64,000 nt of DNA, taken from NCBI GenBank assembly GCA_965215605.1, contig OZ244070.1, positions 2,688,001 through 2,752,000 of the forward strand, given 5' to 3'. Source of the stretch: an uncultured Candidatus Binatia bacterium (GTDB taxonomy: Bacteria; Desulfobacterota; Binatia; UBA9968; JAJDTQ01). Made by a program: the position numbers. Shown in pieces: positions 30,801-42,800 of this stretch; positions within the stretch are counted from its first letter, which is position 1, and every line of letters starts with the position of its first letter.

Positions 30801-33800
30801 GCTGCGATGGTGCGCGTGGGTCCGCGCGTACTCGCGCATGAGCAGCCGCTTGACGCGGGTGGTGCGCTTGGCGTGCCTGCGGACCCGGTCGAGCTCGGGA
30901 TGGGCGAGCCGGTTCAACCCGAGCCGCGCCAGCGCGCGCGCCCGGGCAAGGTGGAACCTGGCCCGCGGGCCCAGAGGCGGGGCTCCGGTCTTCTGCTCCG
31001 GACGAGCCGGCGACGGCGGGGCCGGGAGGGCGACTCCAAGGCCCGCCAGCCGCCGGGTTGCCAGGATCGCGTAGTAGGAATCCCGATCCCTGCGCACCAC
31101 CCGCCGGTACAGCCGTCCGGCGGCGGCGAGATCCTTCAGCTCTTCGGCGGCACGGGCCTCCCAGAAGGCGGCGGCCAACCTGAAGTTGCCGCGTCTGCCG
31201 GCGAGGTCCCGAAAGACGGCCTTGGCCGCCGGGTAGTCGGACCTCAGGTAGTGGATCCAGGCCAGGCGCCAAGCCGCGTCGTTGCGGAAACGGCTGAAGC
31301 GATGCTCCTTGGCGAAGAGCTGCTTATAGGTGCGGATCGCCTTCTCCCACTGCCCCGTGGACTCGTGGATGCGGCCGATGACGTAGACGGCGAAGCGCCG
31401 GCGGAGATGTCCGGGATACCTTCTCCTGAACTCGCGCAGGGTCCGCAAGGCCCCGGCGTTGTCGTCGCGATTCCATTGGATGGTGGCGATCCTCGTGAGC
31501 GCGGCTCCGGCCCGGGCGCGTCCTGGATAGTGTCGGACATACCGGCGGAGGACCTGCTCTTCCTCTTCCCGGAGCCGCAGCTTTCGGTAGACATCGGCCA
31601 GCCCCTCCAGCGACAGCCGGCGGAAGTTGGTTTCCCGCAGGATGCGCTGGTAGAGGTCCGCGGCCGTGCCGTATTCCCGTTCCCGCCGGAGCTGCCGGGC
31701 TTCCCGCAGCATCTCCTCGCCTTTGCGGAGTCCGAGCTGTTTCGGGTGCTTCCGGCGGAGTTCCAGGACCCGTTCACGGGCGCGTCGGCTCCATTCGGAG
31801 CGGGGCGCCCGCCGGCGCGCCTCCTGGTGGAAGGCGTAGGCCTGCCGGTCCTTGCCCACGGCCTCGTGGGCCTGCCCCAGGTAGTAGCCGGCCCGGGCCC
31901 GCGCGTTCCTTCCCCACGGCTTCTCTTTCAACGCGGCGGCGGCGCGGATGGCCGCCTGGTACCGTTTCCGGGCGAGATCCAGCTCCACCAACGCGAAGGA
32001 GGCTCCCCGGGCCCATATGCTCCAGGGGTAGGACTTCCGCAGTTCCCGGAAGTGGTCGCCCGCGGCGTCGTGCTTCCCGGCCTGCAGGGCGATTCGCCCG
32101 AGATAGTAGAGGGCATGGTCGCCGAGGACCAGGTCGGGGTCGCCCAGTGCGCTTCGGAAGAGCGTTTCCGAGCGGGAGTGGTCGCCCTCCGAATAGTGGC
32201 GGTAGGCGCGGGCGAACTCCGATTCCGACCCCGTGAGAGCGTGGACGGAAGCCGCCGCCGGCGCGAGCAGCAGAAACCAGACGAGGACGTAGAGACGCTT
32301 TTTCATCGGCGTGCCGGATCGTTTCGGAATTGTAACAGGCACGGCGCCGGCGGGTAAGGTGCCGGGGGCTGTGGTATACTCGAATCCTGTCGTGCAGGTG
32401 GAGGAGCCGCCGGCTCCGAATCCGAGGGCGGGGCATCGATGGTCGACATCGCCGGTAACTGCAAACGGGTCCTGGAAGGAATCCGCCGCGCCGCGGAGCG
32501 GAGCGGCAGGGATCCGCGGCAGGTCAGGCTGCTTGCCGCCACGAAGACCCAGCCCGTCTCCGCGGTGCGGGCCGCCGTGGAAGCGGGGGTGCGTCTGCTG
32601 GGCGAGAACTACGTGCAGGAAGCGCAGGCCAAGAAGGATCTCGTCGGCGATATTGCCGAGTGGCACATGATCGGACACCTCCAGCGAAACAAGGTGCGGT
32701 CCGCAGCGGAGTTGTTTTCGGTCATCCAGACCCTGGACAACCCGCGCCTGGCCCGGCTATTGGACCGGGAGGGGCGCGAGCGAAACCGGGACGTTCCTGT
32801 GCTGGTGGAGGTCAACCTCACCGGAGAGCAGACCAAGACGGGCGTGGCCGAAGAAGGGCTTGCGCCGCTGTTGCGGGAGGTGTCCGGACTGGAACGGCTC
32901 CGGGTCCGCGGCCTGATGATCGTGCCGCCGTTCGCCGAGGACCCGGAAGCGGGCCGCCCGCATTTCCGGAGGCTCCGGGAGTTGCGTGATTCGCTGAACG
33001 ACCTCGGCCTTGCCAACGTGGCCCTGGACGAGTTGTCCATGGGGATGACACATGACTATGAGGTGGCGGTGGCCGAGGGGTCGACGCTTGTGCGGGTCGG
33101 CACTGCCTTGTTCGGCCCCAGAGGCCCGTCGCGGTAAGCGGGCTCAAACCAACCAGAGGTGGGGATATGTTCGTGGCGGGAAACTTTCTGCAGGCGGTCG
33201 CTGGACTTCTCGATTTCGCCTTGACTCTCTACGTGTGGCTGATCGTGGGGCGCGCCGTGATCTCCTGGGTCAATGCCGACCCCTACAACCCCATCGTGCG
33301 CATGCTCTGCAACCTCACCGATCCGGTCCTGGACCGGTTGAGGCAGATGCTTCCCATGAGCTTCGGCGGCATCGACATGTCGCCCGTCGCGGCCATCTTC
33401 ATCGCCTGGTTCCTGCGCGCCTTCCTGGTGACGTCGCTCTACGACCTGGCCCGGGCAGTGAACTAGTGTTCTGTCCCACGTAATTCTTCACCAAGATGCG
33501 CAGGATTTCTTGTCGTCGGCAACAGGGCACCGCTAGCGTGGGCTTGGAACTTGGCCGTGTAGGTGGCCGACCTGCACGAGCGGGCGCACTCGGGAGCGTA
33601 CCGGGCGACGCCGTCGCGGCGCGTGAACATCCCCAAGCCCGACGGCGGGACACGACCGCTCGGCGTCGCGGCCATCGAGGACAAGATAGTCCAGAAGGCC
33701 GTGACGGAGACAATCCTGACACCGATATACGAGGCGGAGTTCCTGGGGTTCGGTTACAGGTTCCGGCCCGGACGTGGGACGCACGACGCGCTCACCGCGC

Positions 33801-39800: not shown

Positions 39801-42800
39801 TATCCATGCACCGTGTGCGCAGGTGTTTGCTGTGGAACCGCTCGACCAGCCGTGCAAATCCATATCCGAGCCTGAGCCAGACGGACGGCCTTGCAAAAAG
39901 ATCGGCGTCCCGAAGCCGGTTCCTGGCGGCGAGAAAATCGGCCCTGGCAAAACCTTGCGGATAAAGCTCTTCCCGCAACGCGGCGATAACTGGTGTGACG
40001 GGCACCTGGAACCGGCGGGCATAAATCGACGCCATCGCCATATAGAGGAGCCGTGTATGGCAGTACCAGTTGGAGGGATGCAGCGGTATCTTCCGCGGCA
40101 GGCTCCACAATTCCGGCAGAACAGCGTTCACGCCGTTCCAATCATAAAGATTAAGGAGCGCCAGCCATAATTTTCCCCAGCTCGGAATGCCGAGAATCCC
40201 CTCGGCCTGAATGAACCGCCGGGCCGGCGCGATCAGGGGGTCATCCGGCAATACACCGAGCAGCCGCGCCGCGACATAAACGAGGGCGGTGACGAACAGA
40301 TGGGGCGACGAATGCTCGTGCAGGCCCCATGAACCGTCCTGGAGACGAGTCCTCTCAAACGAGCGCAGCACCCGGCGCCGCTTTCCCGGATCGAGCGGCT
40401 GGCCGATGATGTGGTGGAGCAGTACGTATTGCGCCGTGAGCATGGGACACCAGACCATCTCGCCTTCCCAGTCGCCGTCCTCTCTCTGCAGTTGCACGAG
40501 GCATTGGGCGGCGCTGTCCAGCGCCGGGCCGGCATCGGGCGAATCGACCTCTCCGGCGCGGGCAGGCCGCTCCGATTCGGTTTTCGAAGGGATGGAATAG
40601 GGGAATGCCCGTCGTAGGTGCTCTCGCGCATTCGCGCTTTCCTCCCTTCCTTCCCTGGTCGCCTCCCTCAACTGGCGGATGCCGAGCAGCAACCACCAAA
40701 GGCGAGCAGCCAACGCGCGAAAGTTCACCAACATCCGACGCCATGAAAGCCTGCGGATGGAGAAGGTTATCTCCCGGCTCATTGCCCGCGCGACAGTTTC
40801 GCAAAAGGAGAAAACCGTCATTGACATGGACAAGTCTTCGCAGGCAAGTATCCGCATGGTCCGGTCCCGATACCCCGAATTCGCTCGCCAGCCCTGGTAA
40901 ACGGCCTTTCTGAGCATAGCCGATTCGGTGCGGTAATCGCCCAACACCTCATAAAGCCCCATGGCAAGGAACTCGGGAACACGGGTCGCCTGGAACCGCT
41001 CTGCGGTGAATTGCTGGAAGTCCTCGCTTTTGGAGAGCGCCAGCGCATCGCCGAAGCCGAGAGTCATGCCGACTGCCGTCATGGGATGATAGTGTCCGGC
41101 GGCATCGCCGATAAGCACCCGGCGCGGGCTCCCGTACGTGACACGCGGTCTCAATTGGTTGGGGGCGGCATGGAATCGCCTGACGTGCAGCGCTTCGACG
41201 AAGGCTGGCCCGAGATATCCCGGAAGCAGCTTGCCATAGGATTCAGACAAGAAACTTATCCAGTCCTTGGAATTCCAGCAGTCCAATGGGACATCCACGT
41301 TGACCCGGACGGAGCCGTTCGCAAGTCCGTAAATGAAAATTGGACCCGGCCCGCCCAGAACCACATGTCCGTATCCTTCAAACGGCAGGTCGGCGTCGTG
41401 TAACGTCACCCCGAGCATCCGCGAACAGAGCATCGGGTCCATGGAATATCCCAAGGATCTGCGCACGATCGAAGCGCGGCCGTCGGCGCCGATAATTCGG
41501 TCGACATTTATGGCGCATTCCGAGGCGTTTTTCGAGAAGGTGATCCGTTCGTCTTCAACGACCTTGACCCGCGCGTGGGAAATGAAATCGACATTGGCCT
41601 CGTTCTCTATGACCTCGCGGAGGCTTGAAACGAGCAGCGCGTGGTCGCATACCAGACCCCGTGAACCGTCTGGATAAGGAAGCAGGATCGGGTCGGAGTC
41701 GTCGTCGGGCAGCACCACGAAACCGACGCCCGACTTGCTGCCGGAAAGCGTGTCGACATCAATCCCGATGTCACGCAACAACTTCACTGCCGGCGGATGC
41801 AACCATTCGCCTGCAAGGCGTTTAGACGCTTTCGGATTCGCTTCGAGCAGGGCCACCTTAACGCCCTTGCGCGCAAGGACAATTGCGCACACGCTTCCCA
41901 CCGGTCCCGCGCCGACAATGGCGGCATCATACTTCAGCACCGAGTCAGCCCTCATCAAAAGGCGCTGAGTGCAGCGCGGCGGCGGTTGTGGAGGGCAGGT
42001 CGCCGTCCTGGATCGAGAGCAGGAACGTTTCCGGACCCTCGATCTCGTCATCATACTCGGTGGGAATAGAGAAGCGGTACCGGGGCCACCCCGCCGGGAT
42101 AGTCACCGTGTAGGGGCCGCCCGTGTAGTCCCCTTGTTCCGACGCGGTCTGGTCCGTGTTCACCAAGGTAACAGTTGTATTCGTGATCCGAGGCCACGAG
42201 AACATCAGTTTCCAGCTCGAGCACCTCGCCTTTGGCCACCGAGTTGGTGTTGTCCAGATACGCAACACGCTTTTCGGGTCACTTCCCGTACCGGACACCG
42301 TATTGTATTGGTGTCAGCCCGGCCGGATCGGGCCGAATGCCGCTTAACCTATGAGTTTTGGGGTGTGCTCCTGCGTATTCACTCGAGAATGAGGTCTTGT
42401 ATTTCGAAAGCGATTCCCTTATCGGGTCAACCCGCAAACCATGTTCCATGGAATACCTTGGCTATGTGAACGAAATTTGTCAAGAAAATTGATTTGAAAT
42501 ATTTGGCATCATGAGCGCCCAGAAGCGATGGCTTTCGTCTATGACGCCGACGAGGACGCTGCTCCCCAGGTCCTCTGAGGTGGTCCCGGTTTGTAGGACA
42601 GGAAGGCCACCCACCGGGTGATAACCCGCTGGGCCGCGAAGCCGTCTGAGAGTTCGTGCAGTACTACGGCATTTTGTAGCGGCGGCCATGGCCCGCAATC
42701 CCGGGAAAAGGCCGGATGCGCGTGCACTTCCTCCCGATCACAAACAGCCCCGCACGGCTCGTGGCGGCGAACCGGCGCTGCATGACCGCGGGACAATCGT

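Follow-up and report, generated by a model that had tools for sequence, protein, structure and literature searches.

A horizontally acquired cassette of a squalene epoxidase/oxidosqualene cyclase, a GPP34-P450 fusion and an MMPL-type pump in a Candidatus Binatia genome, and its probable part in a sterol module

The window analysed here is a stretch of 64,000 nt from contig OZ244070.1 of an uncultured Candidatus Binatia bacterium. It carries an island of three low-GC genes, specifying a fused squalene epoxidase/oxidosqualene cyclase (SE-OSC), a GPP34-P450 fusion and an MMPL-type RND pump, and adjoined by a tRNA-Leu. The ORFs present (33563–36232(+), 36401–38731(-) and 38500–42054(-)) and their domains (MMPL/Sterol-sensing, GPP34 with p450, and SE with SQHop_cyclase) confirm the three genes described in an earlier note on this DNA. 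The features are as follows:

33569–33856, + strand: group II intron reverse transcriptase/maturase remnant (about 96 codons; TIGR04416, RVT_1)
33893–36232, + strand: MMPL-type RND lipid transporter whose transmembrane bundle is sterol-sensing-like (779 aa, or 772 aa if ATG 33914 is used; Pfam MMPL)
36401–38419, - strand: GPP34-P450 fusion, GPP34_L (672 aa; Pfam GPP34 and p450)
37793–38395, - strand: GPP34 (GOLPH3/Vps74-like) domain, residues 9–209 of the 672-aa protein
36404–37744, - strand: cytochrome P450 domain, approximately residues 226–672 of the fusion
38500–41958, - strand: SE-OSC (about 1152 aa; ORF open up to ATG 42054)
42055–43037, no strand: spacer of about 1 kb between island and tRNA, with no recognisable gene
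43038–43124, - strand: tRNA-Leu(GAG), bounding the island on its right-hand side (ARAGORN; Rfam tRNA 53.1 bits)

The SE-OSC gene is followed on the same strand, after a gap of 80 nt, by the fusion gene, and the MMPL gene is convergent with the fusion gene, 168 nt from the stop of the latter. The fusion, previously given as 776 aa, is real but shorter. Its true start is ATG 38419 (672 aa), where the orthologues aligned in A1 also begin, with GAGGA 12 nt upstream. The earlier note had pointed to an overlap of the first ~110 residues of the 776-aa ORF; the first 104 codons of this ORF lie outside the gene, and about 77 of them overlap the 3' end of SE-OSC. The transporter was described as an 889-aa protein with an RVT_1 fragment, and this had to be rejected. 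The pump starts at ATG 33893 (779 aa; AAGGA 8 nt before this codon) or ATG 33914 (772 aa). What the 889-aa ORF has at residues 3–98 does not belong to the pump but is left over from a group II intron reverse transcriptase, matching positions 38–131 of the 353 in TIGR04416 (97.6 bits) and, just below the cut-off of 29.6 bits, RVT_1 (29.4 bits). The remnant is in frame with the MMPL gene and upstream of it; an Rfam search across 32500–43500 returned no group II intron RNA domain.

The three-gene cassette is of foreign, horizontally acquired origin. The GC content of the island is 53–61% against 62–70% for the rest of the window, and its GC3 is 0.58–0.71 against 0.75–0.94 in the flanking ORFs. 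The edges are marked by the intron remnant on the left and the tRNA-Leu on the right, beyond which are the housekeeping genes secG, tpiA and pgk (Pfam SecG/TIM/PGK). In the spacer, Pfam searches of three ORFs returned no family and Rfam no RNA family; a direct repeat of the tRNA end was looked for and not found. A full fused OSC was found in 3/28 genomes of the genus (including the window's own), and the copies of the fusion typical of the genus share just 49–51% identity with that of the window. The latter nests within a clade of eight sequences (support 100), the others being five alphaproteobacterial and two gammaproteobacterial.

The SE-OSC protein matches Pfam SE (78.4 bits), FAD_binding_3 (74.7 bits), SQHop_cyclase_N (174.4 bits) and SQHop_cyclase_C (187.5 bits), and scores 729 bits to the oxidosqualene cyclase model TIGR03463 versus 267 bits to hopene cyclase. 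Against human lanosterol synthase (1w6k) it scores 453.5 bits, and the VSDCTAE motif is retained. It also has Val at the site of human V453, a residue tied to lanosterol rather than cycloartenol (Wei et al. 2016, PMC4919349). Consistent with the earlier note, no other cyclase was found in the genome, which carries three SQS_PSY genes for precursor supply. Searches of the same genome found neither a CYP51 orthologue (best match 27% identical) nor an ERG24-type reductase.

The fusion matches Pfam GPP34 (80.8 bits, residues 113–313 of the long ORF) and p450 (78.3 bits). Among the best 120 homologues listed, nearly all are about 672 aa and 118 contain both domains. An AlphaFold2 model gave a mean pLDDT of 85.6 and a pTM of 0.71. 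The heme-binding core is intact: the heme ligand, C613, lies within the loop YAP(Y/F)GL(G/D)THxCxG and the EXXR motif is E534/R537, both invariant in the 34 sequences of A1. Seven residues before the heme Cys (position -7) the window copy has N, while 110/114 motif-bearing relatives have Tyr or Phe; the four sequences with N include the window's own ORF and one 99% identical to it. In the I-helix (model helix 463–494), QSIYLGD aligns with AGHHTSS of CYP51, and the conserved Thr is replaced by Leu. As the usual acid-alcohol pair is missing from this helix, the enzyme may not hydroxylate in the ordinary way. Neither a ferredoxin nor a reductase partner was identified.

The fusion is far more widespread than the 25 loci counted in the earlier note. 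Relatives number 1373 proteins (E ≤ 1e-5) among 8000 scored candidates, and in species-representative genomes at least 471 stretches, of 507 matches listed, encode one. Gene neighbourhoods were surveyed by unbiased ORF clustering and Pfam in the best 80 of these (at least) 471 loci, each at least 48% identical to the query and many from metagenome bins. An RND pump is encoded within 10 kb in 66/80 loci (MMPL 55, AcrB-type 11), or 56/64 of those with full flanks. The MMPL neighbour within 3 kb, seen previously in 3/3 loci scanned, recurs in 54/80, against a chance expectation of at most ~3.4% per 22 kb (229 PF03176 matches in 40 genomes, ~150 Mb). Fusion and pump are thus supported as a conserved pair. 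Other conserved neighbours are a sterol methyltransferase (Sterol_MT_C; 43/80 loci within 10 kb and 40/80 within 3 kb), a Rieske oxygenase (49/80), an amine-oxidase flavoprotein (37/80), SE-OSC (15/80) and ERG4/24 (14/80). At least one canonical sterol-pathway family (sterol methyltransferase, ERG4/24, SdmA/B, CYP51 or SE-OSC) is present within 10 kb in 57/80 loci. Locus L008 has the order sdmB, sdmA, erg24, cyp51, SE-OSC, fusion, MMPL, LolA-like; its SdmA scores 403 bits, and the L009 ORF that clusters with its SdmB-like one scores 304 bits.

The pump matches Pfam MMPL (124.2 bits), Sterol-sensing (32 bits) and Patched (25.9 bits). Its scores to HAE3 (TIGR00921, 179.9 bits), HpnN (96.9 bits) and BstA (19 bits) are all under the respective cut-offs. 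With a family profile, the closest solved relatives are MmpL4/5 (94–106 bits), followed by MmpL3 and HpnN (72–77 bits) and then NPC1/Patched (37–58 bits). On these scores, a 'sterol-sensing' match is something that MmpL/HpnN-type RND pumps show in general. Orthologues of the pump (46–80% identity) adjoin the fusion in 15 loci (alignment A3). Since the window-type and Chloroflexota-type MMPL proteins are only 17–19% identical, and an AcrB-type pump is used instead in some phyla, the fusion pairs with a class of pump and not with one orthologue.

We propose, with a probability of roughly 0.6, that the window carries a cassette for a sterol-type lipid that is part of a wider sterol tailoring and export module. 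SE-OSC would convert the cell's own squalene to a lanosterol-type protosterol, which the fusion would oxidise on the cytoplasmic side of the membrane, and the pump would carry the lipid out of the inner membrane in the direction of the cell surface. Across phyla, the fusion would be a core gene of the module, the other members being the RND pump, the sterol methyltransferase, a Rieske oxygenase other than SdmA, the amine-oxidase-type flavoprotein and, in some loci, ERG4/24. The genomes show directly which genes and domains are present, that the neighbourhood is conserved, that the cassette is foreign and that the heme-binding core is intact. That the substrate is a sterol, where and how it is oxidised, with which redox partner, which way the lipid is transported and what GPP34 does are what we infer from them.

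The earlier note had suggested that the pair acts on sterols or other triterpenoids that the cell does not make itself, as most of its ten genomes showed no OSC-type match. When this was redone on the 80 genomes, an OSC-type cyclase was found in 29, only a hopene-cyclase-like gene in 32 and no cyclase in 19; 10 of these 19 are records titled 'chromosome: 1'. The use of non-self sterols is therefore plausible for the 51 genomes in which the OSC-type is missing, and where a lineage has no oxidosqualene cyclase at all, the module would work on host-derived sterols. The suggestion does not fit the window, where the OSC gene is only 80 nt upstream. There the fusion is one member of a proteobacterial clade of 19 (support 100). 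An OSC-type cyclase is present in every one of the 18 genomes that hold the other members, so the window's copy most likely acts on the lanosterol-type product of its own island.

Hopanoids or other lipids may be substrates in lineages with hopene cyclases, and the 32 genomes with only a hopene-cyclase-like gene, together with the 19 that have none, could be taken to mean that the module handles a non-sterol lipid in general (hopanoid, other squalene-derived or long-chain), with the sterol genes nearby merely sharing a 'membrane lipid island'. All five Chloroflexota genomes tested have a true hopene cyclase (752–834 bits) and no SE match, in a search that detects the window's gene, and the pump's closest solved relatives include MmpL4/5, MmpL3 and HpnN. 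Nevertheless, we regard this as unlikely. Among the commonest enzyme neighbours is one with the sterol methyltransferase C-terminal domain (43/80), and ERG4/24, SdmA/B, CYP51 and SE-OSC also recur. Desmosterol and 24-methylenecholesterol are reported to be methylated in vitro by sponge-symbiont methyltransferases of this family (PMC10070321), which may or may not be the neighbours seen here. As 19 genomes bear the module without any cyclase, a hopanoid made by the cell itself is excluded as the substrate in general. The P450 itself is equivocal. The PDB match reported previously was reproduced (CYP51B1, 54.1 bits, E 7.7e-14; the note had E about 1e-13), but it is unspecific, as a CYP102-type P450 scores 53.9 bits, and in fold searches these fatty-acid hydroxylases score the same as CYP51. 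Only the family profile ranks bacterial CYP51 first (92.4 bits), ahead of CYP102-type 7f3w (79.4), taxadiene hydroxylase (78), CYP184A1 (72), CYP90B1 (70) and CYP46A1 (68), so that the description 'distantly related to CYP51' is weakened. This ranking, and the highest target TM-score among the fold matches listed (0.82, a bacterial CYP51), would suit a CYP51-derived paralogue that took over sterol 14-alpha-demethylation after loss of CYP51, as in the window's genome. Among 29 OSC-bearing genomes with the fusion, no CYP51 was found in 10, and one has a fragment. We think such a replacement very improbable: a true CYP51 accompanies the fusion in the other 18, often in the same cluster (in L008 as a separate gene scoring 362 bits to 6mcw), and shares only 33% identity with it over 154 residues. 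The fusion also has Tyr-Leu where the CYP51 I-helix has His-Thr, the window's genome lacks an ERG24-type reductase that would complete a demethylation, and sterols met by cyclase-free genomes would be demethylated already.

The fusion is already in print as GPP34_L. Ferreira et al. 2025 (PMC11706023) proposed that GPP34 proteins, including those fused to P450 (656/663 long forms in their data), bind host PI4P and disturb phagosome maturation, by which the bacterium escapes digestion, and reported the family solely from sponge symbionts, in 16 phyla. Homology is in agreement: besides the Pfam match, the GPP34 family profile A2 matches GOLPH3 (3kn1, E 8.7e-5) and Vps74 (E 3.7e-4). In the other families of the same order the fusion was not found (0/5, and 1/7 with a weak P450 match only). 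An effector role nonetheless appears very improbable to us. Wood et al. 2009 (PMC2806290) name four pocket residues of GOLPH3. In the profile alignment just W81 is kept, aligning with the invariant W31, while I/V, E and I stand in place of R90, R171 and R174. Also missing from this alignment is the 10-residue loop preceding helix alpha-6, and residues 87–111 form a single continuous helix in the AlphaFold2 model. The GOLPH3 alignment is remote (25 bits), so these points are suggestive only. A heme enzyme that needs a cytoplasmic redox partner would be an unlikely secreted effector, and the genes conserved around the fusion encode sterol enzymes and lipid pumps, not secretion functions. We favour GPP34 as a docking or lipid-handling domain, which for a soluble bacterial P450 would resemble the membrane anchor of eukaryotic sterol P450s.

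Taken as a whole, the idea of the earlier note is partly supported. The sterol clusters of sponge symbionts have already been published, and a literature search for a link between them and GPP34_L found no paper; the main text of PMC11706023 does not contain the terms sterol, MMPL, RND, squalene or lipid. The genome comparison suggests that GPP34_L, a published 'sponge symbiosis' protein, handles sterols.

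The three genes lie in a low-GC island beside a tRNA-Leu gene. Mean GC across the window is ~65%, compared with 53–61% from 34 to 42 kb, and the GC3 values of the three long island ORFs are 0.68, 0.58 and 0.71, against 0.75–0.94 in the window's other ORFs passing the same frame filter. Pfam and NCBIfam searches returned the same domains for the three ORFs as the earlier note had listed.

Features of the island and its flanks (window coordinates)
Left flank: YggS-like gene, housekeeping
33563–36232, + strand: long ORF; MMPL match, weaker Sterol-sensing and Patched matches (Pfam)
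33569–33856, + strand: group II intron reverse-transcriptase remnant (TIGR04416, 97.6 bits), in frame directly upstream of the MMPL gene
36401–38731, − strand: long ORF; GPP34 and P450 (Pfam)
38500–42054, − strand: long ORF; squalene epoxidase and both squalene/oxidosqualene cyclase domains (Pfam)
Right flank: tRNA-Leu(GAG), secG, tpiA and pgk, housekeeping

The GPP34-P450 fusion starts at ATG 38419 (672 aa), the start common to its orthologues, with GAGGA 12 nt upstream. A length of 776 aa was rejected, as the first 104 codons of the ORF lie outside the gene and ~77 of them overlap the cyclase gene. The MMPL gene starts at ATG 33893 or 33914. Its ORF is lengthened to 889 aa by the reverse-transcriptase remnant, which delimits the low-GC island on the left; this figure was likewise rejected as a gene length, the first ~100 codons being leftover of the intron enzyme. 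Rfam detected no group II intron RNA domains in the island region (the tRNA was the sole match), no direct repeat of the tRNA end was found as an attachment site, and a promoter/terminator scan of 33000–43200 gave fewer sites than in shuffled sequence. Just outside the island, a 645-aa ORF (28502–30439, − strand) carries in its C-terminal half a histidine-specific SAM methyltransferase domain (Methyltransf_33, 288 bits); we take this protein to be EgtD-like.

The cyclase gene specifies a fused squalene epoxidase/oxidosqualene cyclase (SE-OSC) that scores 729 bits to TIGR03463 (osq_cycl; below the strict cut-off of 851) versus 267 bits to hopene cyclase. The catalytic VSDCTAE is conserved, and a Val aligns with V453 of the human enzyme (1w6k), a position whose residue is tied in the text of Wei et al. 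(2016, PMC4919349) to lanosterol rather than cycloartenol. With its OSC-type score, the catalytic Asp in DCTAE and the Val at human 453, the protein is classed as a lanosterol-synthase-type oxidosqualene cyclase. The same genome encodes three SQS_PSY genes, and a squalene epoxidase search recovered the window's own gene as a positive control. No ERG24, Sterol_MT_C, SdmA- or flavoprotein-type match, and no CYP51-type match or orthologue, was found in this 97% complete genome; of the three adjacent core genes of an ERG24-CYP51-LSS cluster, the window has the cyclase alone.

The fusion joins GPP34 and P450 in one polypeptide and is the protein described as GPP34_L, the long type of sponge-symbiont GPP34 protein (Ferreira et al. 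2025, Microbiome 13:4, PMC11706023). It has the same N-terminal GPP34, C-terminal P450 and size (~670 aa), and the same confinement to sponge-associated bacteria of many phyla. According to the main text of that study, a P450 is present in 656 of 663 long GPP34 proteins, all from sponge symbionts of many phyla; PI4P binding and phagocytosis evasion are proposed for GPP34 proteins, and flanking genes are analysed for the short form only, with a P450 noted nearby.

The P450 part matches PF00067 at 78.3 bits (cut-off 22.8). Its heme-thiolate loop (F/YxxGxxxCxG) retains the Cys ligand, and T610, H611, C613 and G615 are invariant in an alignment of 34 fusion sequences, as are E534 and R537 of the K-helix EXXR. 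At position −7 of the Cys loop (window 36560–36589 region) the window copy has Asn; Tyr or Phe occupies this position in 110 of the 114 sequences with the motif. Of the four sequences with Asn, one is the window's own and a second matches it at 99% identity; the other two are independent relatives of 88–89% identity, so the Asn is a kept change and not an error. P450s usually carry an acid–alcohol pair, (A/G)Gx(D/E)T, in the I-helix. The fusion (I-helix 463–494 in the structure model) lacks it: two independent HMMER alignments place QSIYLGD opposite AGHHTSS of CYP51, with Leu481 in place of the conserved Thr, and S478, Y480, G482 and D483 are invariant. Judged by sequence, this unusual I-helix suggests that the P450 may perform atypical chemistry.

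The description of this P450 as distantly related to CYP51 is weak. Bacterial CYP51 is the best solved relative in a family-profile search (92 bits; next match 79 bits), but in a single-sequence search a CYP102-type enzyme ties with CYP51B1 at 54 bits, and the fold search cannot separate them. Foldseek comparison of the structure model (pLDDT 85.6, pTM 0.71) with the PDB returned CYP102, CYP51, CYP184, CYP120, CYP46 and CYP3A, all with TMt of 0.69–0.82, and the fold therefore gives no family assignment. With GPP34 clusters excluded, the P450 part matched only generic 'cytochrome P450' clusters in the ESM Atlas. The nearest solved relative by profile, which also has the highest target TM-score among the matches listed (0.82), is the CYP51-ferredoxin fusion of Methylococcus capsulatus (PDB 6mcw), a sterol-pathway P450 likewise fused to a helper domain. 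In 6mcw, however, the helper is a C-terminal ferredoxin rather than an N-terminal GPP34, and the I-helix signature differs.

Could the fusion nevertheless be the sterol 14-alpha-demethylase? This was rejected because relatives carry a genuine CYP51 as a separate gene, with low identity to the fusion and a different I-helix. At locus L008 the genuine CYP51 adjoins the SE-OSC, shares 33% identity with the fusion over 154 residues and scores 362 bits to 6mcw, against 51–54 bits (single sequence) or 92 bits (profile) for the fusion. Both genes co-occur in many genomes: of 29 OSC-bearing genomes with the fusion, 18 have a separate CYP51, which lies in the same cluster at L003, L008, L012, L013, L023, L042, L044 and L045. 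A CYP51 orthologue was not found in 10 of the 29 (G001, G002, G005, G006, G009, G011, G014, G053, G058 and G066), and in G010 the gene is reduced to a 127-residue fragment ~1.6 kb from its OSC, a pattern which suggests that 14-demethylation was repeatedly lost while cyclase, fusion and pump persisted. In the window's subclade of 12, where only 3 of the 11 other genomes yielded a CYP51 orthologue, the classical demethylation genes have been lost and the fusion and pump retained.

The N-terminal domain matches PF05719 (GPP34/GOLPH3) at 80.8 bits (cut-off 29.1) over profile positions 1–198 of 201, and a profile of the bacterial family matches eukaryotic GOLPH3 (E 8.7e-5) and Vps74. The homologous domains share the Trp of the phosphoinositide pocket and the beta-hairpin after the long helix. 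In the text of Wood et al. (2009, PMC2806290), the PtdIns4P pocket residues of GOLPH3 are W81, R90, R171 and R174. In an alignment that is remote (25 bits) and not firm, W81 alone is matched, by the invariant W31; the three arginines face no basic residue (R90 = I/V, R171 = E99, R174 = I102). The loop before helix alpha-6 is also missing in the fusion, where the model has one long helix, and the bacterial domain differs further in being joined to an enzyme, in a cell without a Golgi. As far as this remote alignment can be trusted, the pocket mismatch lowers the probability that the fusion binds PI4P. The most conserved stretch of the fusion is an aromatic motif in the pocket region, GYF(H/Y)Q..GW, which could accommodate a hydrophobic ligand or make contact with a protein. 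A complex prediction for the pump (alignment of orthologues from 15 loci) and the GPP34 domain scored 0.00 and gave no verdict. The genome also has a stand-alone short GPP34 gene (C1:3158404–3159018; L082:7375–8028), which at 155 bits to PF05719 outscores the fused domain. It adjoins genes for a STAS-domain protein, UbiD and EutA, and neither sterol nor P450 genes lie within ~7 kb of it.

The third gene specifies an MMPL-type RND transporter (PF03176, 124.2 bits in two stretches). It resembles HpnN (hopanoids), BstA of BstABC (sterols) and mycobacterial MmpL3/4/5 in its RND fold, two MMPL halves and sterol-sensing-like bundle, in lying beside the biosynthesis genes of its presumed lipid, and in the LolA-like or LppX-like carriers found near its relatives. 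Its scores are, however, far under the family cut-offs for HpnN (TIGR03480, 96.9 of 751.9), NF052374 (33.3 of 1100), BstA (19 of 1400) and HAE3 (179.9 bits, cut-off 351.9).

Species-representative genomes were scanned for relatives of the fusion, and at least 471 stretches encode one, well beyond the 25 loci from which the earlier note had concluded that the fusion recurs. The 80 most similar loci were kept, all their ORFs of at least 100 aa were clustered without prior labels, and recurrent clusters were then named by Pfam and NCBIfam.

Genes within 10 kb of the fusion in the best 80 of at least 471 loci, many of them metagenome bins
MMPL-type pump: 55/80 (54 within 3 kb)
AcrB-type RND pump (Latescibacterota, Gemmatimonadota, an Opitutia bin): 11/80
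Any RND pump: 66/80 (56/64 loci with full flanks)
Sterol methyltransferase with Sterol_MT_C domain (SMT): 43/80 (40 within 3 kb)
Rieske/VanA_C oxygenase, only 33 bits to SdmA: 49/80
Amine-oxidase-type flavoprotein: 37/80
ERG4/24: 14/80
Fused SE-OSC: 15/80
SdmA-like: 11/80
SdmB-like: 9/80
CYP51-like: 9/80
LolA-like: 8/80
LppX-like: 9/80
At least one canonical sterol-pathway family: 57/80

Two of the 80 loci have none of these neighbours, and one of the two is only 2.9 kb long. The proximity of an MMPL gene, seen before in three loci, holds in the larger sample: 54 of 80 loci have one within 3 kb, against a chance expectation of at most ~3.4% per 22 kb (229 MMPL-domain matches in ~150 Mb from 40 of the genomes). 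Most often the genes run flavoprotein, Rieske oxygenase, fusion, methyltransferase, MMPL. Loci from Proteobacteria and Nitrospirales have the fusion inside or next to a full sterol operon, as at L008 (sdmB, sdmA, erg24, cyp51, SE-OSC, fusion, MMPL, LolA-like). Going by record names, at least eight phyla have the fusion in or beside genes for sterol synthesis and tailoring and for a lipid pump. Several conserved 'unknown' neighbour clusters (u224, u178, u218, u121, u245, u216 and u315) proved to be ORFs shadowing, on the opposite strand, the genes for Rieske, SMT, amine-oxidase, MMPL and SE-OSC proteins, and were discarded. In the Dehalococcoidia (L035, L037, L046, L048, L050, L051, L066, L069 and L079) the module also includes an MFS transporter together with an LppX/LprAFG-type lipoprotein, which recalls the pairing of mycobacterial MmpL proteins with lipid-carrier lipoproteins. 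Two fusion genes occur within 10 kb at L012 and L036, where each has its own MMPL gene, and at L058, where the copies are adjacent.

When the 80 genomes were searched with TIGR03463, an OSC-type match (at least 470 bits, nearly all in open frames of >1100 aa) was found in 29, a weaker match only (158–291 bits) in 32, and no match in 19. Ten of the 19 cyclase-free genomes are titled 'chromosome: 1', so assembly gaps can be only part of the explanation. Chromosome-level Chloroflexota genomes of the weaker-match group have a true hopene cyclase in 5/5 tested (752–834 bits), and no squalene epoxidase was found in these five. A tree of 81 proteins, inferred by the quick method FastTree, divides the fusion into a proteobacterial clade of 19 (support 100), which includes the window copy and has a fused OSC in all 18 other genomes, and a clade of 62 from all other phyla, with an OSC in 11 genomes.

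Within the genus, the window-type fusion (75% identity) was found in one of 18 other species. That genome also holds a full-length copy of the other clade (49–51% identity), as do six other congeners, and a further congener has a partial one. A full fused OSC was found in three of the 28 genomes searched in the genus, one of which is the window's own. A third, far more divergent full-length GPP34-P450 type (29–31% identity over ~650 residues) occurs in congeners G085, G088, G089, G090, G096 and G097. The genus-type locus of the window's own genome is decayed (C1:1142808–1144918; L083:6638–8919). What remains is an MMPL N-terminal fragment, a methyltransferase fragment that lacks Sterol_MT_C and is 67% identical to a Chloroflexota sterol methyltransferase, and a 351-aa ORF that combines GPP34 with no more than the last ~100 P450 residues, residues 247–565 being deleted. 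The genome can be seen as a natural experiment, in which the genus-typical copy decayed and a cassette of proteobacterial origin, carrying cyclase, fusion and pump, was acquired in its place.

Sterol clusters of sponge symbionts have been described as ERG24-CYP51-LSS 'CSG' (Kelly et al. 2022, PMC9531527), as the msb cluster with bifunctional MsbE (Storey et al. 2020, PMC7074536) and as SMT clusters (Brown et al. 2023, PMC10070321). They share with the present loci the fused epoxidase/cyclase, horizontal spread in the same bacterial classes (Binatia included) and, in the fusion's relatives, the same companions (SdmA/B-like, ERG24, CYP51, SMT). The window island differs in lacking ERG24, CYP51, SdmA/B and SMT and has GPP34-P450 and an MMPL pump instead. 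GPP34 does not occur in the texts of these three papers, nor MMPL in that of PMC9531527 or 'transporter' in that of PMC10070321 (figures and supplements aside); conversely, sterol, MMPL, RND, squalene and lipid have no occurrences in the main text of PMC11706023. No literature linking GPP34 to sterols, or sponge-symbiont sterol to MMPL, was found, though supplements and figures of these papers may show more. The GPP34_L and sponge sterol-cluster literatures concern the same gene sets and, in the texts searched, do not mention each other.

On the best-supported reading, the island SE-OSC would yield a lanosterol-type sterol, which the fusion would oxidise at the membrane before its export by the pump. 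GPP34_L in general would, on this view, supply the P450 of a module that tailors and exports sterols; in cyclase-free symbionts the module would act on host sterols. Here we infer the fusion's substrate, the position oxidised, its redox partner, the pump's direction and the job of GPP34. Where Ferreira et al. see a PI4P/phagocytosis role, the long form is tied here to sterol genes and a lipid pump. Hopanoids or other lipids are a possible substrate in lineages with hopene cyclase only, such as the Chloroflexota genomes with a hopene cyclase and no detected squalene epoxidase. The suggestion in the earlier note that the pair acts on sterols that the cell does not make is plausible where a cyclase is absent (19 of 80 genomes), but not for the window copy, whose clade has a fused OSC in 18 of 18 other genomes.

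A broader reading is that bacterial GPP34 is a sterol- or lipid-handling module feeding the fused P450, and that its gene set lets symbionts which do not make sterols re-tailor those of the host; we put its probability at about one in five. GPP34 would then pick up membrane sterol, or dock on membrane that contains it, and transfer the sterol to the P450, and the set of GPP34-P450, methyltransferase, Rieske oxygenase and RND pump would modify it, side-chain methylation included, and send products to the cell surface or host.

GPP34 proteins have recently been proposed as a hallmark of sponge symbiosis with a role in host manipulation, and for the GPP34_L family there is now a concrete contrast between sterol oxidation and PI4P binding. 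If the broader reading is true, the published 'phagocytosis-evasion' family would be re-read as one of lipid metabolism, with a hint at a lipid-handling ancestry of eukaryotic GOLPH3. Sterol genes of sponge bacteria bear on the reading of 24-isopropylcholestane and related steranes as animal biomarkers; on the same broader reading, symbionts would directly influence the diversity of sponge sterols and would enter that debate. Many symbionts that are cyclase-free may remodel host sterols.
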